Made by a program: the position numbers and the translations under genes. A stretch of 64,000 bases of DNA from Balanoglossus misakiensis (Eukaryota; Animalia; Hemichordata), in NCBI GenBank assembly GCA_040954595.2, contig CM082579.2, positions 14,261,834 to 14,325,833 of the forward strand, in the 5' to 3' direction. Positions 3,058 through 22,050 of the stretch are shown piece by piece (position 1 is the stretch's first letter; each line of letters begins with the position of its first letter). Below the pieces are notes generated by a model that had not been told where the DNA came from, ran no database searches, and was given only the letters and a program-made list of their open reading frames with translations.

Positions 3058-3276
3058 GGAAAATTAAAGTTGGGTAATTTGGATGTATTCATACGAGTGT
3101 TGGTCAATGATAGGAAAGTCCTTTGTGCATTTTCAAAATGAAAACCAAAAATGCGAACAAAACACACTGAATTACGTATGGGATATTGATGTTGCCTAAT
3201 TTGTGTGACTCTACATTTACTTAAACTCTCACAGGGAGACAAATGTCACAGCAAACGGAAAAATGATTATGCTAAG

Positions 3277-5231
3277 CAATACGCCAACCTTTAAAATATT
3301 ACTTTAGAAAGTTTGTATTCATACTTTCTTCAAGTTGTCATAACGCTACCCCGAAATGTGTTTAAGTATTGCCTTTGTATTAATGGGCTAGATTCATGGC
3401 GTTATATGTCATAAATTAAAAAGCCAACCCTTATTGATTTTGATAATATTTATGTCGGAGAATCCACAATGAAAAATATGTATTTCAATTTCATAACTCA
3501 AAATGATTTTCAAATCCATGACCTTATTTTCAACTCCAGTGATCGTACATCCTGAACCTTGTGCCAGTAAATGATTGGCCATTACAGGGTTAATGGGCAC
3601 TCTCCCGTTCTCTTCCTCCGCAGTTTCATTCATGTTCTTGTTTGACGGAAATGGGTGTGACCAGACGCTTGAATGTTTTCATGTGGGTGTCGTTGTTCAT
3701 CGGGATCGGTCTCCTGGTGTGTCTGTACAGGTACGCAAGGAGAAACTGCCCACAAGAAGCTGCGAGTGAAACTATTTAAGGTAGTATGTGCCTCGCGGTC
3801 CGAGATTCAGACAAATGATAGTCCTCAAAACTTTTTCAAGTCTTTGATTTACTAAAGTGTATGGTGAGTCTCTTTGAAAACAACAAAAACATTACTCACC
3901 ATATTGTTATTTTTTTGAAAGTTTAAAATGAAGTTGACAATGTACCAAACAGATTCTATTTATTTCTTCATGACCATGTTCACCCCAAGGTCATATGGAC
4001 CTGCAAGTATATGCCAGAGCCAGAGTCGACATTACCGAAGCCAGAGTTCAAAGCTTGCAGGTCACCCCTTGCCAGCTCATGTCTAGCTAAACTGCCATGG
4101 ATGCCAAGAGATATAGGACTACAGTAACCTGTAGATGGTTTCAGTATGTTTGAAGAAAGTGGTGGCGCACTTTTGGCTACATTTGAAATGGCTATGGTAC
4201 CAGTGGTTGAATTTGCAAAGGTGACCTTTGACCTGGTATCATTAAAGATATTAAAGAACGATTGAACATTCCTTGTTGTCGTAAAATGACATCTGTAATA
4301 ACTTATATTTTATCTGTTTATCTTGAAGTACTATATATTTAAACGCCAATTTTCCATTGCCAATCAATTTTTACAAATAAATTGTAATATGCATGTTGAT
4401 TTTACAAAAACTCCTTACTTCAAAGTGAATTCTGTTACACATCACGTAAATATTTTCCCGACGAATTCTTCAGTTGCTGACTCGGAAATTTCATATATTG
4501 GGCAGAAATTGGATACATTACCGAGCCATTAAAATTACAGTTTTCTATTTTAATTGATCTTCCATAACTTCAAGTACTTTGATTTGACATAAATTAAAAA
4601 CATCATGGTGAATAAATAAAAAATCTTTGATTATCTAATTGTGCATGTTTACCTGGTTTTATTTTAGTATGCTGGGTACTTAATGTCTAATTGCTCGCTG
4701 ATTTCATACTGTTCAAGATGACAATCTAATTTTAGTTTTCAGCTGATAATGGAAATTACTGATTAAAAAAATTGAATTTTGTCATGAATAAACTTGTTGT
4801 TCATGGCAGTTGCTGTATTTTGTTTCATGTGTATTCAATTTTTGCAAGAATACCATTGAGCACAGTTTGATTTGATTAAACACGTTTATCATTTGAAATA
4901 TCTGTTTTTGCGCCCTCTACCATTTGACCAAATGATTCTCTTATTTTTGTGGCCTTTGTCTGTGTATATGAGAATACTATAGTACTCTCGCATCGATGAT
5001 AGTAGAAGTTGAAAACGTCTCTTGCCACGTGGCCTAGAAGAAAGGTGATCTTTAGAGTAAAATAAAACAAACTATCCAGATAGGAAGCTAGAAAAGAAGT
5101 TGAATCGTTGAAATTTTATTTATTTTTATATTGTTAATATCGTTGGTGATGTTGACTGGCCGACAATCTTTGTCACATGAGTCTTTTCAGGCAGATTAAA
5201 ACATTGCCTATTCCAGCAATAATCACAACAG
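3277..5231 (+). repeat. ~1.95-kb dispersed duplicate, copy 1 (copy 2 at 20083-22050)
   Basis: Collinear from CAATACGCCAACC to AATCACAACAG with scattered substitutions and small indels. ORF 3409-3633 is mirrored by 20237-20440. Confidence 0.92.
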
Positions 5232-5445
5232 TCTTACTTTTTCTATCTTTGTAAGCGTTAATCTTTATTGACCTCGCTTGTTGTTTTGTGTTTTTGTGTT
5301 GGTTTTGTTTTTGTTTTGTTTTTTTAGTAGTTTCATAATTTTATTTGTATTTTTAAAATGTTTTCCTGTTTTTTGTTTACTTTTTTATTTTTTTTACTAT
5401 TTGTTGATTGTAATGCTGTATGGGTCTCGACTGTCGGTCCCAACT

Positions 5446-6738
5446 TGTCATATAATTAGGTAGTACTGGAGTCAGTGGAAACCCAGGTGCCCGCATAATT
5501 TCAGGTGTAGTGACACCGTGTATTGTCATGTTAATGAATAGGGCTTCGTTAGCTAAGTTTCGTGTAGTAAGAGAGCACACTTCAATTTAGGTCTTGAAGG
5601 GAGCAACAAGTCGGGTCTCCCTGCTCAGTGAGTAGAAATACTAGGGGAAATATTGCACCATACCTTGCTGTGTCCATGTAATGCTGTAGCGCGCATTAGT
5701 GCTCTCAGGACCACTGTTTCTGCAATTCGAGTGGAAGTAAATTCAGTACTTCTAGAAAGCAGAATTGTGCTTATTCAGTGCAAACCGGTGTGGTCGGGCG
5801 ATTGGCGTGGCTGGCATGGTCGTATGTGGTGTGGCTGGAAATTGCTCCAAGCAGAGTTCTGTGGAACCATCCTATAGACCCGGTATTGCTGAGCATGAAG
5901 TGTGGTGAAGAATTCTCGTGTAAGTAATGTATTTGTTTATTTATTTACTATAACTTAAATTTATATTTTATGGATATTTATGTCAAATTCGACAATTTGT
6001 AAGTAATAGGACGGTCATAGTTAAAGCATAATTTTCCATGATATCACATGTAATCATGACGCTTTAACTAGTCCAAATTTCTGATAATTATTATTGAGAA
6101 ACGTCAGTATTCATTTGTGAACAGTTGCTAAGGTGGACATTTCAGTCAATGTTTGTTGATTTTTCATTCAGCCATTTAACCAAAGACTTGCATCTAACAA
6201 GTCAGTCTTCAGTGTGTTTACTTGACTACTGGAGGACTACAAGTGGTAGAAAACATGGTGTATCACAGATTGTATGTGTAATGTGGATCGTCGCTACATC
6301 GTTCATCTATACAGGACTCCATCCCATATTGTGGTTGAATCATTGTTTACTATGAATGTTATATACAGCTAAGTGACACTTACCATTGTTTAGACAATAT
6401 GCAATAGACAATAAACTATAGTGATATTGTGAATATATTCATTTATGTAATATATTAAGTAACCCATTGTATTGTATGACCAATTGTATCAGCATACCTG
6501 TACTGCTAAATTGGTTAGGACAGAGACATTTGATATTGTGCATATTGTGCTCAAAAATTATATTCCTAGTATTATCTTTATATTATTTAATTGATTTAAA
6601 TTAAATCAACTGTATTATTGTATCCGCACTGGTTTGTGTAGTTTCTCCCCATACCTTATCCACGGATGTTTACTCCTTGGCACTGAGAGCTGCTCAATAT
6701 TTATCCTGGAATCAGAGGGGTGCCCTCCACCTCTGACA
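5446..6738 (+). repeat. 5' LTR (~1,293 bp)
   Basis: TGTCA at 5446 and TGACA ending at 6738, immediately before the PBS. The left edge coincides with where similarity to the uninterrupted motif at 22360-22384 stops. AATAAA at 6410-6415. There is no second LTR to confirm the boundaries. Confidence 0.72.
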
Positions 6739-6740
6739 TT

Positions 6741-6758
6741 TGGGGGCTCGTCCGGGAG
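6741..6758 (+). promoter_or_regulatory. Primer-binding site complementary to the tRNA-Pro 3' end
   Basis: TGGGGGCTCGTCCGGGAG matches the classical tRNA-Pro PBS TGGGGGCTCGTCCGGGAT at 17/18 positions and lies 2 nt after the LTR-terminal CA. Confidence 0.9.
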
Positions 6759-7076
6759 TTTTATCGTTTTGTTGTGCATTTGTTTGTATACTATCATAAA
6801 TTGTTGCCATATAGTGGAGACCATGGTTTTGATAGGTAGAGATTCTGCAAATTGTGAAGACGGTGCTGGGTCTGTAGGCTGGTACTGTTACTGTATGTGC
6901 GCTTGTGGTTTCCTGCTATATAATATGGGCCGTGTTGGTTTGCGTCGTGCGTTTGGCTGTGTTGACTTGTGCTGAATGCCCTGTACTGCTCGGGGTTGTC
7001 AAACTGGGGGTTGTAAGTCGCGATACAGCAAAGCATATATGCAGAAAGAATATCTAAGATAGGGAGAAAATTTGGG

Positions 7077-8848
7077 TTGGAAGGGACTGCTTTAAAAGAT
7101 TATGTTAGAGAGGAACAAATTAGACAGAGGGATCTTAGGGCTACTGAGAGAGAGGAGCAGAGAGAAGATAATAGGCGGCGCGAGGAACATGAGAGAGAGA
7201 TACTGAAAATGCAAATTCACTTACAAGAATTAAAATTGAAAGGGGAAAATACAGAACAGCAGGTTACTGAAAATAATTTGGCCAAAGCGCGGCTCCGAGA
7301 CTACAGGGTTTACGTGAGGATGTTGATGATATGGATGCGTACCTTCAACGTTTTCAGCGCTACGCCACTGCTCAGAAGTGGGAAAAAGATGACTGGGGGT
7401 GAATCTCAGTGCATATTGTTACAAGGTAAGGATGTATCCACATACAACCAAATGCCTGCAGCGTCTGCAAATAATTATGATGAATTGAAACCAGAGTTAT
7501 TGAGGGCTTACCAGTTAAGTGAGGAGAGTTTTCATGACAAGTTCCGTTCGTGTATGCCACATTATGATGAAAGTGCTCAAAAGTTTATGGACCGTATTGG
7601 TGACTATTTGGGCAGATGGGTAGAACTGGCTGGTACTCCAAAGACGTACAATGGGCTTACAGATCTGTTACTTCGAGAGCAGTTTATTGGAGTATGTTCC
7701 AGAGACATGGCAATGTTCATTAGAGAGCGACGGCCAGAGAATGTCCAAGAGATGGTATCTACTGCCTCAAAATACTTAGATGCCCGAGGGTGGTGGAAAC
7801 TGCCAAGTAATGCCAAGAATAATCCAAGGAGCCAGCCGACAGCAAATACCAAGCCTGCTGTATATCCAAATCAAGTAAATAAGTTTAATAACAAAACCGA
7901 TGGTTCCCATGTTTTTAAAGGTACGTGCTTCGTATGTGGTAAAGGTGGTCATATGGCCAAAGATTGTAGAAGTAAGCCAAAGATGCATAAGACGGCGGTA
8001 TTGTTAACTGAAGAAGATAGAAACTATCCACCTAAACAAGAATGTACACATTGGGGCAACCGTCAACAGCCCAGGGGACTAGACACTGGTTATGCATGTA
8101 TGGTGGTAGCAATGGAAATAGATAAAACAGATGCAACACTGAATAAGGAGTTCGTGTTACCATGTGGTCATAAGCTCCCAGTGATGAGTGCTGCTTGTAG
8201 TGCCCATGGAGTGAAGAAGATGCCGGTAATGAAGGGATTGGTCGATGGTAAGCTGGTTAGCGTTTTGCGTGATAGTGGGTGTAGTAGCGTGGTAGTTCGA
8301 AGAAGTCTGGTGTCAAGTAATCAGCTGACTGGTGAGTACAGGACGTGTGTTCTGATAGATGGGACTATTAGAAGAGTACCTGTAGCCTCTATAAAAGTTG
8401 ATACCCCTTACTTTGTTGGTGATGTTACTGCACTGTGCATGATGAACCCTGTGTATGATTTAATACTGGGCAACATTGATGGTGTATCTGACCCTTCGAA
8501 TCCTGATACTACATGGCAGGAACCATTGCCGACATGTAGACTGTGTACAACTGTTGGACAGGTACCAGGTTTAGCAAATGCTGTGGAGACCAGAGCCCAG
8601 AAGATAGCCAACCAAAAACCAATCAGAGAGCTTAAAGTACCTAAAGCTGTTGGTGAAGTGGTGATGCCAGGGAAGCTTCAACAAGCTCAAGAAGAAGACT
8701 CCACTCTTGACAAACTACGTGAGAAGGCAATTTTGGGTGACGAGAAAGTGACTAGGAATGGAGGTAGGTTGAAGTTCATCATGAAAGATGGGATCCTGTA
8801 CAGAGAGTTCAATTCGCCAATGGTCCAATTTGGTGAAAAGCTGTTACA
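7077..8848 (+). pseudogene. gag: Gag-protease (5' part of the gag-pol polyprotein)
   Basis: Coiled-coil N-terminus, SCAN-like LLLREQF...FIRERRPENVQEM, zinc knuckle CFVCGKGGHMAKDC and protease LRDSGCS. The typical gag motif DDMDAYLQRFQRYATAQKW lies in another frame (~7310-7400), implying compensating frameshifts. ORF sequence after 8848 is read-through into the inserted transposon. Confidence 0.88.
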
Positions 8849-8888
8849 CACTGCGGGAAATACTAGAGCTATGTTGGGCAGTATTCCG
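8849..8888 (+). repeat. Left bipartite terminal inverted repeat
   Basis: CACTGC, a 20-nt spacer, then TGGGCAGTATT (8875-8885) followed by CCG. Confidence 0.8.
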
Positions 8889-8932
8889 CGAAGCGCGAGC
8901 TCCCATGTTCACCATAGCAACGCATTGCCAAG

Positions 8933-9583
8933 ATGGCGGCGCCCGTGTTGATCGATGCCGAGAAAGTTATAAAACGCAAATTGCGAGAGGCAAAATCTGT
9001 GCTTAAACGTAAAAAATGCGTGTCGGACAATCTGTATATACACCCACTCTTTGATGAACTTGAGGATGTGACAACAAGGGCCATATTTCGAAACGACAAG
9101 CTGTCAAAGGACAAGATTCGTTGGCGTGACGTCGCCGTATTTCCCATGTTTCAGCGTGATATGACCTACTGGCAGAAGACCTTCTACGCTCGGCTGTCAA
9201 CATCCCCGTCGTTAAGGTCACCATGGCAAAGCAGCTTTACACAACAAATGCCGAGGGAAGTATTTGATGTTTTTCATCAGTTTGCTACTCGGACCGGTTT
9301 TGGTATCGACGAGAAGACCTCCAGGGCTATCATAACCTTGACCTTCACAAGTTCCTCGAAGCTATTGTATGTGATACGGAAAGGTTATTGCTACGAGGGC
9401 GCTATCGGTCAGCATACAGAGAATATCCTAGAGAAGAAAGTCCGTGGAAAGAGGGTAGCTGTTATATGCACACCTGAGAAGCCCTGTGTTGTGAAATATT
9501 TTATCAACAGGGAGACTGTTGCTGTTAGATTCAGCTTTGGTGCCTGGAACAAACATGGAATTCCATTACATCCAGAGAACTGA
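8933..9583 (+). CDS. 216-aa orphan protein carried by the DNA transposon (ORF2), basic N-terminus
   Basis: Uninterrupted ORF with a strong Kozak context (AAGATGG), starting 84 nt inside the left end. NLS-like KRKLREAKSVLKRKK. AATAAA at 9712-9717. No domain recognised. Confidence 0.75.
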   Translation: MAAPVLIDAEKVIKRKLREAKSVLKRKKCVSDNLYIHPLFDELEDVTTRAIFRNDKLSKDKIRWRDVAVFPMFQRDMTYWQKTFYARLSTSPSLRSPWQSSFTQQMPREVFDVFHQFATRTGFGIDEKTSRAIITLTFTSSSKLLYVIRKGYCYEGAIGQHTENILEKKVRGKRVAVICTPEKPCVVKYFINRETVAVRFSFGAWNKHGIPLHPEN

Positions 9584-9711
9584 ACCCTATTGATTTTTCA
9601 CACTGATTCAACCCATCTGACGAACATTTTTTTCCTGATCTGTGGCACATGTTGTTCAGTGTAGATGTATCAGTCTGTCAAGACAGTCCTCTCACAATTG
9701 ACATATATTCA

Positions 9712-9762
9712 AATAAAAAAAGGAAAATTAGAAGACTCAAAAATTCATCACTTGTCTTTATT
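9712..9762. terminator. Convergent polyadenylation signals
   Basis: AATAAA on + at 9712-9717 and AATAAA on - (TTTATT) at 9757-9762, between the two convergent genes. Confidence 0.45.
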
Positions 9763-10435
9763 TATATACATTCAATACAAATGAACAGATAACGTTTACA
9801 AAATTTCCTAAACTGTAAAATTCTTTTTTTCCATCATTATTGTAACATAGATTTTTCATTAGTTTCAGAAAAAAATGTATGTTACCTACAATCAACATTG
9901 ATAAGTCAATCAAAACTGCTCATCTAACAGTTAACCAGGATTTCTGGTCTAAATTTAATTAATATTTACAATTAATTCCATGACAAAATTTATAAATATC
10001 AAGAATTTGATGAGACTTAATTCTTTATTTTTTCACAAATTCATTAAAATTTCGTGCAGGTGCAGAATAAACAACTCCTCAAGAAAAATGTAAAACTTTT
10101 CTATCAAGCTTATGTATGTCATACATTTTAATTTTGCAAAGCACTGCAATCACTATACGATTAAGGGTTTATTCACAATACTTAATAGTGGTAAGATAAG
10201 TTTCAATTTCCCTGTCCCCATACATGCACACATATACAAAATCCCATAAGAAACATATCATCTCCAGTTCAAAAAGTGTGAATTCATGTGATTTGTGATC
10301 TCCATTTTTATTAAATGCAGCTCTCAACTACAGATGAGTCTTTATAATTCTGTAATGTAATTAATACCATAGTTATCCTTTAATTCTAAAGTAGCACACA
10401 GTGACACAATCCACTGTTTCAAATTCAATCATTGT

Positions 10436-12676
10436 TCACAGCATAAGTTTCTTGAGTTTATTTGATATTTTACCAGTGACAGCTGCTTTTTTTATGTCAT
10501 CCATAATTGGGTCAACACATATTTCACAGGCAGTCATTGTTTCATTTTTCAAATTGCCACACATACAGTAGCCTGCATTCTCATAATATCGACTGGGAAT
10601 GTATTTTTCTTTTTCTTTAAGCTCAAATTGACCTACATTTGCCCTTCTATAGTTGTCAGCTTTTGGACTTTTGTTCCTCAGCCAAAAAAGCATCACATAT
10701 TCGTGTCGAAATATGAGGGCCCACCTATTTTGAGGTGTAGAATTTTCACTGAATTCTAGCAGGCGTAGATGCTTTGCCTCTCTGCCTTCCATTGTGTTTA
10801 GGCCTAATCCCAGACTGAATTGCTTATAGATACTAGTGGTGTGTTTTGGGACTACATAACCAATGTGCCACACAGTATTATTGACATTCAGAAACAGGGA
10901 ATGTAGATTAAAGTACCACCGACACTTATGCCTAAGTACAAGCAAATCTCCCTCATTTATGTTGAATCGTGAGAATAACAAAGTGATATCTCTAAGCAAG
11001 ATACTAGTATATGTGTAGAGAGCTAATTGAGCCCGACGCTTTGGACTGTCTGTATCGCTTCTCAATGCTAATACCAATCCCATGAAATGCCAAGCAAGTT
11101 TGCGAGACTCCTCACCAGTGAAGCGATAAACCACATTAATGTTGGCATTTGACTTGACACTATTTTCATTGAAGTATTTTACAATCTTATTATACAACTT
11201 TCCAGCTTTTACTTGATATTTTAGGGCAGACAGGAATTTGTACAGATATGACTCGTTAGGTAGATTCTCAATTTTAACTCCATTTTCACGACCCTTTTCC
11301 GAAGTGTGGGCAACTGCGTCAATCAGTAATCGTTGGAAGTAGTATTGCCATGCATTGTTCTTTAAATGCAATGGCTCAGCCTTGGCACAATCAATAAATC
11401 TACCCAACGGTGGTACAAATTCCTGTCTTGACCTCAGACTGGCTATAAATTGTGTGATTTTGGGTCGCACTGTTTTGGGCTTTCCAGTTTTAATTTTCTT
11501 AGTTGACTTCAACTTTTCAACAGCTTCTGCATCTTTTATTCTTTTCTGATATTTCCATTCATCCCACTTCTGACCTGGGCCAATTTCTGCTCCAATACAA
11601 TCAATATCATTTTTGGAAACGTTAGCAAATGAGCTGAAATACTTTGCTGCATTGCTTAGTTCTCCAGACACACTGGCCAATCCCTTCTGATCAAAGGGTA
11701 AAAGTGACACCTGAAAAGTTACATCAAGACTGCCAACTTTATATTTACGTTTCTCAATACACTCAAGGTCTTTTGACAATGCAATTGCAAATTCAATCAT
11801 TATGGGGTCATCCTCTTTTATGTTTGCCCCTAATAGGAGAAAATTGTGGTCTGGGCTAGCAACACGGTGGGTCACATTCAAGAAACTAACTAGCCATGCA
11901 GTGGCCTGTCCATGTTTGCCAAACGGAGCCCCGTCAGCACCTATACTGATTTGAAATGAGCCCTCCTGTTTACCGAACCAGTTAAGAATATCAGGCTGTG
12001 TTTCCCCCATATTTAAATATAAACTGGCAATCTTAATAAGCAACTCCTCAGGGTTTCTTTTTAAGCCGACTTGTTTGCCTTCAGATGATATAATTGGCTC
12101 AAGATTTCCAATGTCAAGGTTACTTACATACTGTACAACTTTTGTGTATGGGAGCAGTCTTGGTATTCTACAGCCAGAATGAATTTCTAATGCTTTCCTA
12201 GGATGTTTCAAGTTGGAGAACATCTGAAGTTCACTCTGCCTCAGACAGTTATATTTTCGTTTGGATAGTACTCCGCCCTCATACATAGTTCTGACACTCC
12301 TCACCAAATTGTTCTCACTTTTCTCAAATTTACTGATGTATTTATCAAATACTGATGGCATTACTTTTTTACTGATTTGGGGAGAGGTTCTGAAGTATGT
12401 TTTCATTTGGTCAGGAGTGGCAGAATTAACAAGAGTATACCACAAACCATCAAGTGCTGCTTTTGGTGGATGTAGTACATTCGGTTTATTTATACCTTTG
12501 GCTGGGCTTACATCTGTAGTTGCTACATGAATATTTATGGCTGCTGATAAGGTTTCACACCTACGTTCATACTGTTGACGTCGCGACAGCTTCAAAGATT
12601 CACTATTATCTGCACATACTTCAGTGTTCTTGTGGACCCATTTAGAGCGTTTCACATTAACATCATCAACAGGAAT
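10436..12676 (-). CDS. DDE transposase, main exon (746 aa), RAG1-core/Transib/Chapaev-like
   Basis: Motifs in order: LSRRQQYERR, LSKRKYNCLR, SIGADGAPFGK (D codon 11935-11933), LPFDQKGL (D 11692-11690), EPLHLKNN, RFTGEESRKL, WHIGYVVPKH, MEGREAKH (E 10780-10778) and C-terminal CMC-x10-CEIC. A phase-0 acceptor (TTTCAG) precedes 12676. No internal stops. Confidence 0.85.
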   Translation of the reverse strand: MPVDDVNVKRSKWVHKNTEVCADNSESLKLSRRQQYERRCETLSAAINIHVATTDVSPAKGINKPNVLHPPKAALDGLWYTLVNSATPDQMKTYFRTSPQISKKVMPSVFDKYISKFEKSENNLVRSVRTMYEGGVLSKRKYNCLRQSELQMFSNLKHPRKALEIHSGCRIPRLLPYTKVVQYVSNLDIGNLEPIISSEGKQVGLKRNPEELLIKIASLYLNMGETQPDILNWFGKQEGSFQISIGADGAPFGKHGQATAWLVSFLNVTHRVASPDHNFLLLGANIKEDDPIMIEFAIALSKDLECIEKRKYKVGSLDVTFQVSLLPFDQKGLASVSGELSNAAKYFSSFANVSKNDIDCIGAEIGPGQKWDEWKYQKRIKDAEAVEKLKSTKKIKTGKPKTVRPKITQFIASLRSRQEFVPPLGRFIDCAKAEPLHLKNNAWQYYFQRLLIDAVAHTSEKGRENGVKIENLPNESYLYKFLSALKYQVKAGKLYNKIVKYFNENSVKSNANINVVYRFTGEESRKLAWHFMGLVLALRSDTDSPKRRAQLALYTYTSILLRDITLLFSRFNINEGDLLVLRHKCRWYFNLHSLFLNVNNTVWHIGYVVPKHTTSIYKQFSLGLGLNTMEGREAKHLRLLEFSENSTPQNRWALIFRHEYVMLFWLRNKSPKADNYRRANVGQFELKEKEKYIPSRYYENAGYCMCGNLKNETMTACEICVDPIMDDIKKAAVTGKISNKLKKLML

Positions 12677-13054
12677 CTGAAAGATTAAGTGTGTGATAAA
12701 TATATACTAATTAGAATATAATCATTATATATAAAATAAAATCTTCTTACAAGTTAATCATTAATTTAAATGTCCTTGATAAGAAATACACACGTGTAGC
12801 CTGATAAGAAATACACACGTGTAGCCTGTATTTTTCTGACAACTTCTGCAATAAAAATCCTAAAAAATATATATAGTTTGTTGGAAAACCTAGATGTTTT
12901 GCATCAAAGCTGAACCCATTTTGTTATCATTGTTTACACAGGATCATGTGACATGAAGTTCAAAAAGCGAATTTGGGCTAAAATTTGAAGAGGATTTATA
13001 CAAATCTGAGATTTTTAAAATTATGACTAAGTCTATTTATCTGATCTAGCTTAC
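12677..13054 (-). other. Predicted 378-bp phase-0 GT-AG intron of the transposase gene
   Basis: Donor AAG|GTAAGC and acceptor CTTAATCTTTCAG|ATT; the phases match and join ...NNKRK to IPVDDVNVKRSKW... The intron is AT-rich and contains a 25-bp tandem duplication at 12777-12826. Confidence 0.8.
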
Positions 13055-13498
13055 CTTTCTCTTATTATTCTTTGTAGCTAAGATCTCACAAATCTTACTG
13101 TTCTTCTTCTCTAGTCTAGCTAGCTGGGTTGAGGATCTTTTTACTAGTCTCCTAGCTGCACTCAACTTATTCAACTTATCCTGAATTATGCTTTCTTCCT
13201 CATCTCTCTTTCTCTTTCTCTGTCTACACCACTCTCCTAAGTTAAACCTGTGTTTAGTCTGTCCTCTCTTTGTTCTAACTACCAATAGGTTGTTGGCCAC
13301 GCTCCCAGACAAAGATCTAGTCTTCAATTTCTCCTGATATAGTTGTTGCAAACACTTCTCTTCAGCTACCTGTCTCGCTATCTTTTGGTCCTTTGCCCAC
13401 TGGCCTATGTTGAAGTAACTTTTCCCTTTTCTATTCGGCATAACAATAGACAAACTTTTAAGAAGTGCGCTACTCCTGTTGAATAGTTTGCCCCACAT
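13055..13498 (-). CDS. Transposase first coding exon (148 aa, basic, helical)
   Basis: GCCATG start at 13498, just downstream of an acceptor (CCCTTTTCAG, exon from 13514), and ends at a GTAAG donor. The spliced product is 894 aa. Candidate upstream donors at ~13650 and ~14218 suggest non-coding leader exons. Confidence 0.72.
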
Positions 13499-14306
13499 GG
13501 CTCTAAATCTATACCTGAAAAGGGTGAACAAGAGAAATATCTTTACAATAATTATCTATCCGAGGGAAGCAAAAACAAAACACCTGCTCATTATACTTCC
13601 TCCAGAAATTGAGGTCAAAGGTGACATAGAAAGAATGTGGGTAACCTTACCATAACAATCTCGCCCGTTCATTTTTTTCTTATTTCGTTTTCACCCTCGA
13701 ATTTCCAGCGAATTATATCAAGAATATATTTTAGCACAAACTATTGGTTTCTGATTTTTCAGTTACGGTCTTATTTTCTGTCAATTCTATGAACAATATC
13801 ACCATGTCGCTGAAAATTCGAAGCGCCGCCATTACAATCAATGTAACCCGTGCTGCTGCCAAGGAACACACAGGGTCGTATATTTTCGCTTGGTATGATT
13901 TCGTCATATTGCTTGTAGCAGCATTTTAAACATGGAATCCTATGTTTACGTATAAAAGACTAAATTCGTATGGTTTTCAATTTGAAAAAAACAATTCTGT
14001 GAAGCTGAATCGTTGTAATTTTTAGTGTTTGTTTATGGTTGCTTAGGACGGCTTCTGCTATAGCAACGGCCAGGGACTGTCAGCGGGTGATCAAAATGTT
14101 CAAGTTATTTGGCTGATACACATAAATAACACAGCAGAATCGCAACTTTATTTCATATTGTCTCTGACATCTTGCTAATTTTACTAAACAAAACTTGGAA
14201 TAAAGCAATATTACTCACCGAATTATGCTGTGCATCGACAGCTGTGTTCGATCGCGAACGCCATTACTGTGTCTAATTAAATATTCATGAGCTTCATAGG
14301 CTGCCA

Positions 14307-14347
14307 CGGAAATACTGCCCATAGGTGGCGTCGTTCAAGCTGTAGTG
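14307..14347 (-). repeat. Right bipartite terminal inverted repeat
   Basis: Reverse complement reads CACTAC, a 20-nt spacer, then TGGGCAGTATT (AATACTGCCCA at 14311-14321) followed by TCCG. Confidence 0.8.
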
Positions 14348-14351
14348 ACAG

Positions 14352-15977
14352 GTGGTGGTTCCCAGAGTGTATCGTAACCAGGTGATGAGACTAGCCCATG
14401 AATCAGTGCTGGGTGGTCACCACGGAACTCACAAGACCACAGACAAGATCCTCAGCAACTTCGTTTGGCCTGGGCTAACATCAGATGTTTCCCGTTACTG
14501 TCAGTCCTGTGATTCATGTCAACGGACACAACCAAAGGGACGGGTGACCAAGGTACCACTTGGAAGTATGCCACTAATAGATATCCCTTTCCTACGTATT
14601 GCAGTAGACCTGGTTGGCCCTATTCATCCATGCACTGAACGCAAGAATAGGTACATACTTACTGTTGTTGATTATGCTACACGCTATCCGGAGGCTGTTG
14701 CATTGACTAACATTGATACCAAGACTGTTGCAGAGGCGCTCCTGGACATCTACTCAAGAGTGGGGTGTCCACGTGAAATTCTGACAGATCAAGGAACTCA
14801 ATTTACATCAGATGTGATGCGTGAGGTCAGCCGGCTTTTGTCTATAAAGCAGAAGACTACCACCCCATACCACCCAGCATTCAATGGTCTAGTGGAACGG
14901 TTCAATGGTACATTGAAACTCATGCTCAGGAAGATGTGTGAGGAACGTCCAACATATTGGGATCGTTATCTGAATGCTTTACTATTTGCCTACAGAGAAA
15001 CGCCTCAATCGAGCACAGGATTCTCTCCGTTTGAGTTACTTTATGGGAGGAGTGTGCGTGGTCCAATGGCTATCTTGAAAGAACTATGGACTGGAGAGAT
15101 CAGTGAACCAGAAACCAAAACGACTTATCAATACATCCTTGATCTTCAAAAGAAATTAAAGAAGGCATGCGATTTAGCAAGACAAGAACTGAAGATATCA
15201 CAAGGCAAATACAAGTCCTACTACAATAGAAAGGCCAAATGGAGGAAGTTCAACAAAGGTGACGAGGTGTTATTGCTACTACCTACTGACCATAATAAAC
15301 TACTTATGCACTGGAAGGGTCCTTTTCCAGTGGTGGAGAAAGTGAGCAATATGGATTACAAGATTGACTTTGGTCATAGGGTGAAAACATTCCATGCCAA
15401 CCTGTTGAAGAGGTACTATCGAAGAACTGATCAGCTAGATGAAGTATCAGCTGGACTTCTTGAGATTGTGTGTGTATCTGTGATAGATGAGCAGAGTTAT
15501 GAATCTTCAGAAGTACAAGAGAACACAGGGGTTAAAGTAAACGATGACTTACTGCGGGTTCCTGCATTCAAGCAGAAAGAATTTGCTGCAGATGTGAATG
15601 TATGTGACAACTTGTCAGACATACAGGAGCAAGTGGTGAGGAGGTTGCTGATCAATTACAAAGATATGTTAACTGATATTCGTGGTAACACCAACCTGGG
15701 TTTCCATGACATCAAGTTGATGGATCCAACACCAGTATGCAGTAGGCCATACCCCATCCCTCATGCACTCCGTGAAGCAGTGAAAGATGAAGTCAAAACG
15801 ATGATTAAGATGGGAGTAGCTGAACCTTCAGAGAGTCCATATGCTGTTCCACTGGTAATGGTGAAGAAATCTGATGGGTCCAATCGTTGTTGTGTTGACA
15901 TGAGAAAGCTCAATCGCATAACAGTGTTTGATGCAGAGCCTACACCAGACCTGAGTGAGCTTTTTGCTTTTTGCTAA
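14352..15977 (+). pseudogene. pol: Gypsy integrase followed by the N-terminal part of reverse transcriptase
   Basis: HHCC (LAHESVLGGHH...CQSCDSC), DDE (AVDLVGP, LTDQGTQF, GLVERFN) and WKGPF, then RT motifs RPYPIP, SPYAVPLVMVKK and RCCVDMRKLN. Terminated by a 7-bp duplication (TTTTTGC x2 at 15961-15974). Confidence 0.93.
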
Positions 15978-16358
15978 GTTATCCAAGGATCACTATTTCA
16001 CTAAAGTAGATCTCAGCAAAGAATATTGGCAAGTCCCGTTGACTGATAATTCTAAACAATTGACAGCATTTATCACGCATGATGGGCTATACCAATTTAT
16101 CAAATGCCTTTCGGACTTGTAAATAGTGCTGCGACTTTTAGCAGAATTATGAGAAGATTGTTAAGAGATATGAAGAACGTAGACAACTATATCGATCACA
16201 TACTGATCCACACTGCATCATGGGAAGAACATATCAAGACAATTACAGATTTGATGAGCAGACTACGAAAGGCAAAGTTAACAGCGAGACCAACTAAGTG
16301 TTATGTGGGTTATGAGCAGATCGATTTCCTGGGTCATGTGGTTGGTCATGGTGAACTA
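15978..16358 (+). pseudogene. pol: Remainder of reverse transcriptase, frameshifted and truncated
   Basis: Reads KVDLSKEYWQVP...TAFITHDGLYQF, then a frameshift, then MPFGLVNSAATF, YIDH in place of YIDD (16188-16199) and FLGHVVG. Homology ends at ~16358. Confidence 0.9.
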
Positions 16359-16475
16359 GTCCTGTTTCAAAATGACCTACATTACAGGTCCTATGCACAC
16401 GTATTACATGTTCTGATTGGTTTATCCACTTCTCTAAGGTCCACTTGCGGCTCGCTGATTGGAGGGACCTTATGT

Positions 16476-16714
16476 GTTAGGTCTTATTACTATGTATTAT
16501 TCACCAGACCTTGTAGGTTAGGTCTTATTACAATGCATTATTCACTTTACAGCTCCCTGATTGGTTAATGTGTAGGTCTGGTCCTCCAGTGTTCACTGCC
16601 TCATTATGCAGGACCTTGTAGGTTAGGTCTTATTAATATGTATTTATTCACCATACAGCTCCCTGATTGGTTAACGTGTCAGTCTGGTCCCCCCCCAGTG
16701 TTCACTGCCTCATT
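16476..16714. repeat. Short tandem repeat, two ~105-bp units plus a partial unit
   Basis: GACCTTGTAGGTTAGGTCTTATTA...CAGCTCCCTGATTGGTTAA...CCAGTGTTCACTGCCTCATT occurs at ~16508 and ~16612. Confidence 0.75.
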
Positions 16715-18255
16715 GTGAAATGTCCCATGTGCTTCCTGGCTAGCGTTGTGGTAACATATTATTCGGGGTGTACGCAGATCGTTCATTGATTTTCTGAGAA
16801 ATAGCCTAACTGATACTATCTCCAACATAAACCGCACCCTGGAAAGATTAAATGATCTTTTAGGTGGACTTTGAAAATCTGATTAACTCATCTAAGCATT
16901 TTAGCTAAGTTGTATATTTTTTAATTATAATCATACAAAATACTTAAAAAATAAAAACAATGTTCAGTTTTAATACCCACTGATGAGGGGAAACATCAGT
17001 TTCAAATTCTTTTCATGGGAGCGCTTGAGCAGAGTTATGAGTTTTGCTCTGTGAAAGAAAATGGGGGGATTTCAAAATTTTGGCAGTTCGGAAGGGGGAT
17101 TTCAAAATATTTCGGGTTGTGAAAGGGGGGGGGGGCATGTGAAAATTAGCGGTAAAAGATGAATCCCCCCCCCCCCCTCCAGAGGTGTTTGTGAATGCAG
17201 CCTAAGAAAGAAAAAATGTGAAATGGGTCAAATATGGGCCGGACGTGCCCATTCAACTCAATTTACTTTTGTTTGCTTTAAGTAGGAATTGATCACAGCT
17301 ATATTTATTTTGGACACCTGAGCGACAAGAAAACAATCTGATTCTACATTTTAAAAAGCGTCATTGGAAAAGCACTGCAATTTTGTTTCTTGCTTTAAAA
17401 AAGTTTGGGGTGGCATGTAATAATTAAGGTGTGTCTAAATTACTAATTTGGTGCACCTCAAAGCCCTTAGCCAATGTAAATTATATCCTGCATTGTATTC
17501 ATGAAGGATATCCTCCCGCGAGGTCAATGCCATTCAATGTCAAACAGTCTCAACAAAGACCATTGGACACTCATAGCCGTTTTGTATGAAAGTGACTGGA
17601 GTACGAGATGAGTTTCATGACAACAACAAATCATGCTCAGTCTCGCTGCAGGGTCTATAATTTCAATAACGGCTAGACGCTGGACACTATCTTAGGTAAC
17701 ACTTTAGGGTCATAGTGCTGGAACGACATGTTTAAACAGGTCGTTCCGGCACTCTGACCCTTTCGGCCCCAGTCGTTTCAGCCCCCATTTTCCACGACCC
17801 AAGTCGTTACAGCCCGGACAGTAACACCCCAAACATTTCAACACTTATCAGGGAAGACCTTAGCCCAACTATTAAAACTTGGCTTGAACCTACTTAAGTT
17901 CTCCGCATGAAATATGAGCGAGCGTTGTCAGAGGACGACAGCTACGCACACTTTGGGCGTGACCGAATCAAACAGAATTGAATATTCTATATTCGGAAAA
18001 AACACCTTATCTCCGTTTTGCCGTTGACAAACCGATTTCTGTCATGACAGTTACTCCCGGGGACTGTGACAGACCATATACAGACAGTAGAGGCCGCGCG
18101 CTGGGGGTCTACACAAGTCACTACAGCTGATGTAAGCAAGTACAACATGCTTTGCTTGCAGGAATGTTCCATTTTCAATAGAGGGGTGTGTATATTCAGA
18201 GGGAATGTCAGTCGGGGCCCTGGCTGGCAACATGCGGCGTATATATTGACAATCT

Positions 18256-19183
18256 TAGCCGGGAGACCAGGGCGTCGATCTAAAATACAACGCTCGGGGA
18301 CAGTCGAGCAAGTCCTGCTGAGCTGAAAGATAGTAGTCTTGGCAACGATCGAGGTCGCTTAGTAACAAATGGATAACGAGTGATCTATCAAATGTTGACG
18401 GGCGCCAGTGGTTGGATGATATAATTAAAGGCACGTAAGCTGTAACTGGATAAAAAATTAAAGTTTTAAATAATCTCATATATGCTTTTAATTATGTCTA
18501 TTAAATGCTGTTTCATGATAATATATCAAGCTCAACACTTATTTATGACAAAATGGCCAAAAATTAAAGAAAAACGAAAATTCCTGCAATTTTAAAAAAA
18601 GCGCAATATTGCAATGAAAAATGAAAATCTGATGTCTCAGTGGTGTACATTTACTTCCATGAGCTCAAGTGGATGAGATCATGTTTTGTTTATGAAGTTT
18701 CACAACCGGAAATGCAACATTTTCATTGTTTCTTGCATTTTCCCACGGTGGCGGCCATAATCGCTTGCGGCAAAGCTTTATTATTTATCTGGTTAAAACT
18801 TGCATATGCACTCATACTTAGGGTTTATAATGCTTGTGTATTGTTCACTACCTTCATCTGTATGGACTAATGGTAGTGCAGTTTGAAACAAAAATTATGA
18901 AAATTATCCCAAAAGTTACACCTTACGTGCCTTTAACAAAGCTTGGTTATGAATATTCATACACCTTCAAAACCACTCCCACATCCCATCGCGGGAATTT
19001 CACACATGACTCCACCTCTATTTCCTTATTTAGAAGGCGACGATGTCATGTGGTTAACATTGAGTGACCAATTAGCTTACACGCAAGATTTACCACACGT
19101 GTCGTTCTACGAACAGAATTCTGTTCGTAAATAGAGACTGTCCCCGGGCGTTTCTTTTCCCCGACGCCCTGGTCTCCAGGCTA
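18256..19183. mobile_element. Non-autonomous DNA transposon with ~50-bp TIRs and a 9-bp TSD (AcademH- or MULE-type)
   Basis: Left TAGCCGGGAGACCAGGGCGTCG...CGCTCGGGGACAGTC and right GACTGTCCCCGGGCG...CGACGCCCTGGTCTCCAGGCTA. Perfect TSD TGACAATCT at 18247-18255 and 19184-19192. Superfamily is inferred only from TSD length and the TAG..CTA ends. Confidence 0.88.
18429..18932. mobile_element. Non-autonomous Kolobok-like MITE (504 bp), nested in the 9-bp-TSD element
   Basis: TTAA|AGGCACGTAAGCTGTAACT ... AGTTACACCTTACGTGCCT|TTAA: 19-bp TIR with one mismatch, TTAA TSD and purine-purine termini. Confidence 0.88.
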
Positions 19184-19616
19184 TGACAATCTCGCTGATA
19201 GGCGCAGCTGGAATTTATGTTTCTGTGGTATGATTATTGTATTTTATCAATGCACAATCACGATGGGCGAGTTTCAAGCAAGCAATTGGATTCGCTTCAA
19301 TCCCTCACTAAAATCTAGACTGCACCACTGTATAATAACACAATACAGTCTTCTAGCCTCATGGTATAAACAGGAACTCTTGTCTGCTGGACATCCGGGT
19401 ACTTTGGTCTACTGAGTGAACGCGTTACGTATAGAGGTAACGCAAAGTGAAAACCTATTTAAGGCAGCCACAACAATCAGTGTTGACGTACATACAATCT
19501 GACTAAAATCGCAGTTGGTATGACGACAGCATACTAATAATACTGTACCACATAAGTAAAACACGTCGTCGTACCGTACATCTGAATTTATTCAGATTAC
19601 TGCATATTTGCATATA

Positions 19617-19823
19617 CTGTGAAACAAGTTATTTTCGCGAGCAATACATTTTCGCGAGATACGTGAGAGCCAAAATGGTATGAAAATAAGAGGTCGCATA
19701 ATTATTTTTGAAGATAACGATGCAGTGAATGAAATAAGAGAACGCGAAAATTAATACTCGCGAAACAGTAGCCTCTCTCGATATCGTGAAAATTTCAACT
19801 CGCTAAAATAAAGTGTTTTACAG
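19617..19823. mobile_element. Small MITE with TA TSD
   Basis: TA|CTGTGAAACA..TTATTTTCGCGAG at the left and CTCGCTAAAATAAAGTGTTTTACAG|TA at the right, with internal TTTTCGCG/CGCGAAAA motifs. Confidence 0.7.
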
Positions 19824-19850
19824 TAGTTTATGTATGTAAAGTGTTCCTGA

Positions 19851-19978
19851 TGTTAACACAATCTGATTAAAATCAGATGTAGGCCTAGGGAATGGCGACG
19901 TAGTTTTTTGATGCTGCGACAGCATAAAAAACACGTCGCCGTTCCCTACATCTGATTTTAATCAGATTAGCGTTAACA
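19851..19978. repeat. ~128-bp near-perfect palindrome (hairpin-type MITE)
   Basis: TGTTAAC..AATCTGATTAAAATCAGATGTAGG..GGGAATGGCGACGT..TTTTTT.ATGCTG, a 3-nt loop, then the reverse complement. A decayed relative lies at ~19495-19598. Confidence 0.8.
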
Positions 19979-20082
19979 TAACTTTATCAGAATAAGTTAA
20001 CGCCATAACTTTGACAGAATAAGAGTTGCCTCAAACGGCTCTAACCGAATTTCCATTAATAGCAGAACAAACAAGCTGTAAT

Positions 20083-22050
20083 CAATACGCCAACCTTTAA
20101 AATATTACTTTAGAAAGTTTGTATTCATACTTTCTTCAAGTTGTCATAACGCTAACCCGAAATGTGTTTTAGTATTGCCTTTGTATTAATGGGCTAGATT
20201 CATGGCGTTATATGTCATAAATTAAAAAGACAACCCTTATTGTTTTTGATAATATTTATGTCGGAGAATCCACAATGAAAAATATGTATTTTCAATTTCA
20301 TAACTCAAAATAATTTCCAAATCCATGACCTTATTTTCAACTCCAGTGATCGTACATCCTGAACCTTGTTCCAGTAAATGATTGGTCATTACAGGGTTAA
20401 TGGGCACTCTCCCGTTCTCTTCCTCCGCAGTTTCATTCATGTTCTTGTTTGACGGAAATGGGTGTGACCAGACGCTTGAATGTTTTCATGTGGGTTGAGT
20501 TGTTCATCGGGAACGGCCTCCTGGTGTGTCTGTACAGGTACGCAAGGAGAAACTGCCCACAAGAAGCTGCGAGTGAAACTATTTAAGGTAGTATGTGCCT
20601 CGCGGTCCGAGATTCAGACAAATGATAGTCCTCAAAACTTTTTCAAGTAATTGATTTACTAAAGTGTGTGGTGAGTCTCTTTGAAAACAACAACAATATT
20701 ACTCATCATATTGTAATTTTTTGAAACTATAAAATGAAGTTGACAATGCACCAAACAGATTCTATTTATTTCTTCATGACCATGTTCACCCCAAGGTCAT
20801 ATGGACCTGCAAGTATATGCCAGAGCCAGAGACGACATTACCGAAGCCAGAGTTTAAAGCTTACAGGTCACCCCTTGCCAGCTCATGACTAGCTAAACTG
20901 CCATGGATGCTAAGAGATATATGACTACGGTAACCTGTAGATGGTTTCAGTATGTTTGAAGAAAGTGGTGGCGCACTTTTGGCTACATTTGAAATGGCTA
21001 TGGTACCAGTGGTTGAATTTGCAAAGGTGACCTTTGACCTGGCATCTTTAAAGATATTAAAGAACGATTTACCATTCCTTGTTGTCGTAAAATGACATCT
21101 GTAATAACTTATATTTTATCTGTTCATCTTGAAGTACTATATATTTAAACGCCAATTTTCCATTGCCAATCAAGTTTTTACAAATAAATTGTAATATGCA
21201 TGTTGATTTTACAAAAACTCCTTACTTCCAAGTGAATTCTGTTACACATCACGTAACTATTTTCCCCACGAATTCTTCAGTTGCTAACTCGGAAATTTCA
21301 TATATTGGGCAGAAATTGGATACATTACCCAGCCATTAAAATTACAGTTTTCTATTTTAATTGATCGTCCATAACTTCAAGTACTTTGACTTGACATACA
21401 TTAAAAACATCATGGTGAATAAATAAAAATTATTTGATTATCTAATTGTGCATGTTTACATGGTTTTATTTTAGTATGCTGGGTACTTAATGTCTAATGG
21501 CTCGCTGATTTTATACTGTTCAAGATGACAATCTAATTTTAGTTTTCAGCTGATAATTGAAATCAATGATTCAAAAAAATTGAATTTTGACATGAATAAA
21601 CTTCTTGTTCATGGCAGTTGCTGTGTTTTGTTTCATTTGTATTCAATTTTTGCAAGCATACCATTGAGCACAGTTTGATTTGATTAAACATGTTTATCGG
21701 AAAATTTTGTCATTTGAAATATCTGTTTTTGCGCCCTCTACCATTTGACCAAATGATTCTCTTATTTTGGTGGCCTTTGTCTGTGTATATGAGAATACTA
21801 TAGTACTCTCGCATCGATCATAGTAGAAGTTGAAAACGTCTCTTGCCACGTGGCCTGGAAGAAAGGCGATCTTTAGAGTAAAAAAAACAAATTATCCAGA
21901 TAGGAAGCTAGAAAAGAAGTTGAATCGTTGAAATTTTATTTATTTTATATTGTTAATATCGTTGGTGATGTTGACTGGCCGACAATCTTTGTCACACGAG
22001 TCTTTTCAGGCAGATTAAAACATTGCCTATTCCAGCAATAATCACAACAG
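20083..22050 (+). repeat. ~1.97-kb dispersed duplicate, copy 2 (of 3277-5231)
   Basis: Collinear with 3277-5231. Its 3' ~700 bp is copied again at 24645-25340. Confidence 0.92.

Follow-up and report, generated by a model that had tools for sequence, protein, structure and literature searches.

A two-gene DNA transposon of 5,499 bp occupies positions 8849-14347 of a 64,000-nt stretch of DNA (the window) from Balanoglossus misakiensis (assembly GCA_040954595.2, CM082579.2:14,261,834-14,325,833, forward strand). It belongs to a recurrent, apparently undescribed lineage of RAG-fold transposons, which carry a conserved partner gene of their own (ORF2) and have lost the zinc site. According to the account favoured here, which is considered fairly probable as a whole, the transposase would cut and paste the element, and the co-inherited ORF2 protein would be a non-catalytic helper in a RAG2-like role, recruited independently.

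The insert lies between two ACA triplets and has CAC..GTG ends; it begins CACTGCGGG, and its final letters are CTGTAGTG. Open reading frames (ORFs) of a long terminal repeat (LTR) retroelement on either side of the insert (7017.. and 14349..) share one reading frame, as is predicted by a clean insertion with a 3-bp duplication. Contigs of run X1, which may be the window's own sample, span both junctions (7798-10002 and 14014-16357). An earlier interpretation made from the letters of the window (the sequence-only reading) had given these exact boundaries with an ACA target-site duplication and had claimed that excision restores the retroelement frame; the sequence, the frame continuity and the junction contigs bear this out. 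The transposase gene (minus strand) and ORF2 (plus strand) are arranged tail to tail, with stop codons 852 bp apart. The two-exon model of the transposase (exon 13498-13055, GT donor 13054, AG acceptor 12677, exon 12676-10436) gives 894 amino acids without an internal stop, the splice and the start methionine being predicted. The spliced frame of about 894 amino acids and the opposing 216-amino-acid frame proposed earlier are retained.

A search with the main exon of the transposase finds 212 homologous proteins (120 listed). Among the matches listed, the closest is from Ptychodera flava (74% identity), and the others are at 33-45%. The named hosts are a hemichordate (Ptychodera flava), cnidarians (Nematostella, Porites, Acropora, Actinostola, Dendronephthya) and a nemertean (Lineus), and all the named homologues are annotated as 'uncharacterized'. 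Scans of 46 proteins, 45 of them taken from the 120 homologues listed, assigned no Pfam family to the transposase, and the precomputed Pfam column for the 120 matches shows none either; no PDB sequence was matched by phmmer or by profile, and no relative was found in viral contigs.

An AlphaFold model of the transposase built from 111 sequences has a predicted local distance difference test score (pLDDT) of 91. Foldseek matches it to RAG1 (best E 3.5e-13) and HzTransib (7.6e-8), with no other match below 0.8; at E<=0.001, 48 of 48 among the matches listed are RAG1 or HzTransib. VIA superposes residues 119-674 of the model onto mouse RAG1 461-1005 (Z 22.9, 463 aligned, root-mean-square deviation 3.8, 11% identity). 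The Z scores for HzTransib (20.4, 425 aligned) and amphioxus RAG1L (BbRAGL, 20.2) are close to this value, and more distant folds follow (P element 11.2, ISCth4 7.5, Hermes 5.8). Identity to RAG1, HzTransib and RAG1L is 10-13%, and the structural alignments to HzTransib range over 12-14%. In the prediction, the RAG1/Transib fold extends over the enzyme from its dimerisation/DNA-binding domain as far as the C-terminal domain; the RAG1/Transib type proposed by the sequence-only reading agrees with both fold comparisons of this predicted model.

The residues D249, D330, H438 and E634 (P0001 numbering) are invariant in 111 of 111 sequences; in the window, their codons are situated at 11935, 11692, 11368 and 10780, respectively. 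The D-x-K..G spacing is the same as in SPRAG1L. Counted from D330, the zinc-cysteine positions (+19/+22 in the sea-urchin RAG1L alignment) correspond to S349 and A352. Position 349 is serine in 103/111 sequences and cysteine in 4/111; position 352 is alanine in 88, glycine in 19 and serine in 3 of the 111, and cysteine is not among its top residues. Judged from this alignment, the family has neither cysteine of the RAG/Transib/CMC zinc site; secondary loss or the position of a sister lineage could account for this, and the choice is undecided. The sequence-only reading had not noticed that the C(2)C zinc ligands, by which the clade is defined, are absent. In the zinc histidine pair, H613 is kept in 108/111, and position 608 is histidine in 50/111 and tyrosine in the window. 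Loss of both histidines was also considered and was rejected because of the presence of H613. The C-terminal part carries an invariant four-cysteine cluster, C705-x-C707...C718-x-x-C721.

In one homologue (P0122, Lineus longissimus) residues 1-44 resemble the terminal part of a bromodomain (PF00439, E 5e-4, below the cut-off), which could reflect capture or an annotation fusion. An upstream bromodomain exon of this kind was not found in the window.

Relatives of the element were collected by a metagenome-contig scan, in which 258 of 452 candidate stretches were confirmed and the best 80 were used (46 clusters); the loci were chosen on the transposase alone. ORF2 homologues are located downstream of the transposase on the opposite strand, tail to tail, at 30 of the 35 loci whose flank extends for 1,400 bp or more. 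Every locus that reaches the ORF2-side terminus carries the gene (21/21, representing about 13 families and not 21 independent cases). ORF2 begins 78-132 bp from the terminus, and its start codon has the context ATGGCG or ATGGTG (13/13); in the window this codon is found within AAGATGGCG, 85 bp from the terminus. The trees of the transposase and ORF2 for 19 elements have 11 of 16 splits in common (the maximum in 10,000 random comparisons is 4), two supported splits of the ORF2 tree disagree with the transposase tree, and the distances correlate with a Mantel rho of 0.56. ORF2 diverges much faster than the transposase (identity 10-82% vs 34-88%). The ratio of non-synonymous to synonymous substitution rates (dN/dS) of ORF2 is 0.31 in the single unsaturated pair, L001/L051. 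Five deeper pairs have proportions of synonymous differences (pS) of 0.76-0.88, which is saturated, and of non-synonymous differences (pN) of 0.29-0.47; the pair L005/L048 was left out because its coordinates contained a frame slip. By these comparisons, ORF2 is co-inherited and under purifying selection. That it might be a one-off passenger, which the sequence-only reading had allowed for, is contradicted by its presence at the loci counted above.

Profile search finds 29 ORF2 homologues and a full HMMER scan finds 75; the named hosts are Pocillopora damicornis and Tubulanus polymorphus. The Pfam accession PF26709 is carried by 28 of the 29 profile matches. A single-protein word-indexed search with ORF2 gave no match, and neither did a local Pfam scan of it, in a library that does not include PF26709. 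One homologue, P0292 (Tubulanus polymorphus LOC141906646), has tau/MAP tubulin-binding repeats followed by a full ORF2-like domain (459-609) in three isoforms and would be either an exonised transposon or an annotation fusion.

In the model of the ORF2 protein (pLDDT 83), the N-terminal part forms long helices, and a small alpha/beta domain contains one small sheet. The family is basic (median isoelectric point (pI) 9.3), with conserved R/K and aromatic columns and a conserved C-terminal motif, G-x-W-N-x-x-G-x-P-x-H. Its alignment contains no acidic triad and no conserved acidic or Cys/His catalytic cluster. Foldseek against the PDB gave no clear match (best E 0.029). A wide VIA search reached Z<=7.7, with the N-terminal helices dominating, and a second look at the alpha/beta domain, which was not folded alone, gave Z<=4.9; the best hit in a viral structure library has E 5e-4 with a TM score of 0.17. 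RAG2 chains are present in the PDB library and were not matched by the model. A RAG2-like kelch propeller or PHD finger is ruled out for ORF2 by the fold model, the lack of a Cys/His cluster and the lack of a RAG2 match, in agreement with the earlier statement that the partner shows no kelch or PHD signature.

Two-ended relatives (n=12; L005, L014 and L022 were excluded, one end being damaged or without flank) begin with CACGC or CACGG in 12/12 cases and have 5-16 perfect terminal bases. The inverted repeat of the window element is eroded (4 perfect bases, 9/20 of the first positions), and both its ends carry the 11-bp subterminal motif TGGGCAGTATT at the identical offset 27-37. A CACT start is limited to the window element and a sister family, so that the 'CACTA-type ends' of the sequence-only reading are not supported. 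Duplications of 3 bp also occur in Chapaev3 and some Transib-related elements. An exact 3-bp duplication is found at five of the 12 two-ended loci (TAG, ATT, GAT, AGC, ATA; p 1.6e-6), and 4- or 5-bp duplications at none of the 12. One locus, L081, is decisive: it is inserted in a 294-bp satellite whose unfilled units have ATA once, and the filled unit has ATA on both sides. The 3-bp duplication and the convergent ORF2, whose co-occurrence in homologous elements had been proposed as a check, recur together.

The locus L081 (CBDAUV010000034.1, filed as an Anaerolineae metagenome-assembled genome (MAG)) is a complete two-gene member and the sole relative from the prokaryote-genome scan; it is likely to be animal DNA misbinned into a bacterial MAG, not a bacterial occurrence. 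Four 797-aa copies of the transposase are located on separate Nematostella scaffolds. In seven of the 12 two-ended relatives, an inverted copy (98-339 bp, 88-96% identical) of ORF2-side sequence is present upstream of the transposase. Loci with such a copy are L007:1401-1507/7542-7649, L013:806-903/6289-6386, L022:282-472/3747-3937, L037:569-746/5100-5280, L081:4861-5199/12413-12745, L008, L015 and L036. The segments differ between families and are not present in the window element; they may stem from template switching between ends or serve a control by hairpin RNA. In the family L004-L009, another CACGCCGGG terminus is nested in the element, about 845 bp inward of the transposase-side end, and resembles the ORF2-side end.

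The features of the window element and its host are as follows.

3273-22050, plus strand: host LTR retroelement, outside the transposon; about 2-kb terminal repeats, SCAN and zinc-knuckle gag.
8846-8848: target-site duplication ACA, ORF2 side (sequence).
8849-8890, plus strand: ORF2-side terminus, CACTGCGGG...; motif TGGGCAGTATT at 8875-8885 and an inverted motif copy near 8852-8864.
8933-9583, plus strand: ORF2, 216 aa; basic (pI 9.9), N-terminal helices and small alpha/beta domain, G-x-W-N-x-x-G-x-P-x-H end.
9584-10435: spacer of 852 bp from stop codon to stop codon; each strand has AATAAA hexamers, putative polyadenylation.
10436-12676, minus strand: transposase main exon, 746 codons; RAG1-core fold (model), D249/D330/E634/H438, C-x-C...C-x-x-C C-terminal cluster.
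12677-13054, minus strand: predicted GT-AG intron; contains a 25-bp tandem duplication (12777-12826).
13055-13498, minus strand: first coding exon in the predicted transposase gene; 148 codons for a basic, helical segment; no Chapa/RING cysteine cluster.
13499-14305, minus strand: presumed transposase promoter and 5' untranslated region; candidate donors 14218 and 13650, candidate acceptor 13515.
14306-14347, minus strand: transposase-side terminus, CACTACAGC...; motif TGGGCAGTATT at 14321-14311.
14348-14350: target-site duplication ACA, transposase side (sequence).

The first exon is weakly similar to the N-termini of homologues (best E 0.018; tblastn E 0.004). The tandem duplication in the intron is perfect in the window and is a single copy in the contigs of the runs. 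The run contigs differ from the window within the transposase by 1-bp indels at 10544 and 11617. Twelve codons differ, nine of the changes being non-synonymous and three synonymous, and 3/3 differences in ORF2 between the window copy and a run contig change the amino acid. These codon changes and indels look like neutral drift after insertion; the window copy would have been inserted recently and be under neutral drift at present. Its frames are open, and any activity is putative. The term 'intact' used by the sequence-only reading therefore applies to the window sequence, but not to the run contigs, which the indels frameshift.

No empty site for the window element was seen in the X1/X2 reads among the best-supported loose ends listed. 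A divergent contig present in X1 and X2 starts CACTACGGG at the same offset as the window terminus, with a different flank, and in X1 it also matches ORF2 (8874-8987, 9534-9581); lower-depth divergent X1/X2 contigs match the terminus, ORF2 and the transposase (8874-8987, 9534-9581, 11161-11246). From the shared start and the ORF2 match it follows that the same terminus and gene belong to a sister family, and at least one such family is, on these contigs, present in the same sample.

The host retroelement, which we take to be Gmr1-like, has terminal repeats of about 2 kb, which is unusually long (3273-5231 and 20079-22050, 95.8% identical); its integrase precedes the reverse transcriptase, which is in pieces. 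A 3,291-bp unit that takes in some of the right LTR occurs in two copies of 99.9% identity (window 21355-27935) and borders a large AT-rich satellite array of about 78-bp units, which occupies the remaining window (23000-64000).

A transposase with the RAG1/Transib fold would be likely to cut and paste the element. Nicking, hairpin formation and D-D-E integration by a dimer constitute the biochemistry of RAG and Transib. By analogy, a transposase dimer could synapse the ends, a nick and then a hairpin could be made at the element ends, and the same D-D-E site could integrate the element with a 3-bp stagger. The C-terminal cysteine cluster may read DNA inside the element end, as suggested by the tail domain described in PMC7204232. 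The basic ORF2 protein may bind the transposase and/or end or target DNA, the odds among these helper roles being about even. It could thereby do for this element what RAG2, TnpA of EnSpm or the Myb protein of Harbinger does in other systems, having been recruited independently.

Several observations weigh against this account. Both zinc cysteines have been lost, unlike in every described member of the clade, which may affect catalysis. No Chapaev, EnSpm or Mirage transposase structure is among the fold matches, and these matches therefore do not show that the enzyme is nearer to RAG than to those groups. The window copy has eroded ends and, in the same runs, a frameshifted variant; among the same loose ends of the X1/X2 reads, a second insertion site for the window's family did not appear. 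Matching trees indicate linkage, not binding. Five of the 35 loci have no ORF2, and a deeper ORF2 profile did not rescue them; all of them stop before the far terminus, and in four the sequence may not extend far enough, because the stop-to-stop spacer ranges from 325 to 3,979 bp in relatives. The fifth, L046, has 4.6 kb downstream without ORF2, and its similarity to ORF2-bearing kin ends about 200 bp past the transposase. Seven of the 12 two-ended loci have no duplication. Five of these seven belong to 98-99% identical multicopy families, whose assemblies may join flanks of different copies (L011 and L013 have a common left flank and different right flanks); L003 and L037 are unexplained.

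The co-inheritance of ORF2 could be explained in other ways. The protein could have an anti-silencing or regulatory function apart from the transpososome, binding RNA or chromatin and protecting or tuning expression of the element. In the ESM Atlas, its features lead to Argonaute N/L1/PAZ clusters (0.93), a call that is weak because recognition is low (1431) and shared-feature counts are below 170. Among the weak Foldseek rows (E 0.03-0.1) are short complexes of Argonaute, the N-repeat domain of RnlA and the RNA-binding KA1 domain of METTL16, against which stands the best VIA Z of the alpha/beta domain, 4.9. The fast divergence of ORF2 suits such a factor, and the inverted ORF2-side copies of relatives could form double-stranded RNA; however, strict retention beside the terminus across transposases of 34% identity fits a needed partner at least equally, and a function of this kind, the main rival to the helper role, is regarded as unlikely. 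Captured cargo, kept by linkage alone and with no role in mobility, is a highly improbable explanation. It would agree with the absence of any fold or family link to transposition and with the amino-acid-changing differences of the window copy, but the open frame and C-terminal motif are kept across synonymous saturation in many families, and the fixed position, fixed orientation and congruent trees strongly disfavour it.

The family could also be already catalogued in Repbase or Dfam (e.g., among the EnSpm, Chapaev, Transib or Lanisha groups of animals), second gene included, which is judged somewhat unlikely. Intact multicopy members occur in Nematostella, a genome annotated in depth by repeat curators. 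PF26709 is already assigned to ORF2 homologues, Lanisha has been described in Repbase Reports only, and CA..TG ends with 2-5-bp duplications fit Kojima's CMCT clade (PMC12730594). The C(2)C common to all CMCT lineages in the same source is, however, absent here. The transposase has no Pfam match in the proteins surveyed, its named homologues are all uncharacterized, and PF26709 is mentioned in no paper of the literature searched. The family motifs were not found in the readable supplements of RAG/Transib/CMCT papers, a weak search in which long cells are incomplete. No description of this family was found in the paper literature searched, Repbase, Repbase Reports and Dfam lying outside the search; to this extent the 'undescribed lineage' of the sequence-only reading holds.

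A standing question about the origin of V(D)J recombination is why Transib can do without a second protein and a RAG1-type enzyme cannot. A lineage with the same fold and tail-to-tail layout and a different partner is a natural comparison, directly testable with the intact multicopy members in the laboratory animal Nematostella. The family would also provide an outgroup for RAG/Transib/Chapaev trees and a RAG fold without a zinc site and with a 3-bp stagger for structural work. A function would be given to the orphan protein family PF26709 and a name to hundreds of 'uncharacterized' cnidarian, nemertean and hemichordate genes. A bolder proposal, possible and put forward tentatively, is an unnamed RAG-fold branch of superfamily level, old and widespread in marine invertebrates, lacking the zinc site, with a 3-bp stagger and an obligate subunit of new fold, which would be an independent rerun of RAG1+RAG2.

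RAGL/ProtoRAG transposons (Martin 2020, PMC7204232; Tao 2022, PMC9435367) share with the element the RAG1-core fold (Z 20-23 for the predicted model), D-D-E with an active-site His, CAC-starting ends, two tail-to-tail genes, a cysteine-rich C-terminal tail and marine-invertebrate hosts. Their partner RAG2L is a six-bladed kelch propeller, usually with PHD, whereas ORF2 encodes an alpha/beta protein of about 210 aa. The RAGL duplication is 5 bp, in contrast to 3 bp here (window and 5/12 loci, none with 5 bp); RAGL have a ZnC2/ZnH2 site, the ZnC2 cysteines of which are absent here, and a CTT* tail of the form Cx2Cx3GHx4C instead of C-x-C...C-x-x-C. Identity to the element is 10-12%, compared with about 37% inside the RAG1L clan.

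Transib, for which the mean identity of the clan is about 34% (Tao 2022, PMC9435367), resembles the element in fold (HzTransib) and in short CAC ends, and some Nozomi relatives also have 3-bp duplications (bioRxiv 10.64898/2026.08.26.747230). Transib encodes a single protein (PMC4411706), whereas two genes and a longer enzyme are found here. Identity to HzTransib is 12-14% with no sequence-level match, and the zinc cysteines are absent here. The Transib duplication is 5 bp vs 3 bp here, a test that weighs less since the Transib length is labile.

Chapaev and Chapaev3 (PMC4079192, PMC4411706) have CAC..GTG ends and 3-4-bp duplications, as does the element (3 bp for Chapaev3), and the LH motif is kept. 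The target of Chapaev3 is TWA, which occurs in 0/6 of the sites here (ACA, TAG, ATT, GAT, AGC, ATA). Chapaev3 has an N-terminal cysteine-rich Chapa domain, whereas exon 1 here has three scattered cysteines and full-length homologues have no cluster. The C(2)C is absent here, and H(4)H is half kept (H613 108/111, H608 50/111); the passages covered in these two papers mention no second gene for Chapaev3.

EnSpm/CACTA elements have CACT[A/G] termini, unlike the relatives described here, and the CACTA transposase Pfam domains gave no match in the 46 proteins, although the models may miss animal members. The broader CMCT clade (EnSpm/CACTA, ESTA, Plavaka, Lanisha; Kojima 2025, PMC12730594) resembles the element in CA..TG termini, a 2-5-bp duplication, a DDE enzyme with RAG1 resemblance and, in some members, extra genes. 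It differs in the common C(2)C, missing here, and H(3-4)H, half kept here, and in the convergent ORF2, which belongs to a separate family. Since the tests that define RAGL, Transib, Chapaev3 and EnSpm fail, the element is filed under none of them.

Accessory genes are common among DDE transposons. Kolobok elements (Kojima and Bao 2022, PMC9587614) provide the parallel of DDE lineages keeping a lineage-specific second protein (KolX, nucleases, helicase); their transposase and ends are unrelated, and ORF2 has neither the seven-cysteine ballast fold nor a nuclease motif. Beside these systems, the present family is likely to be a separate instance in which a RAG-type enzyme has kept a partner, here one unrelated to RAG2.

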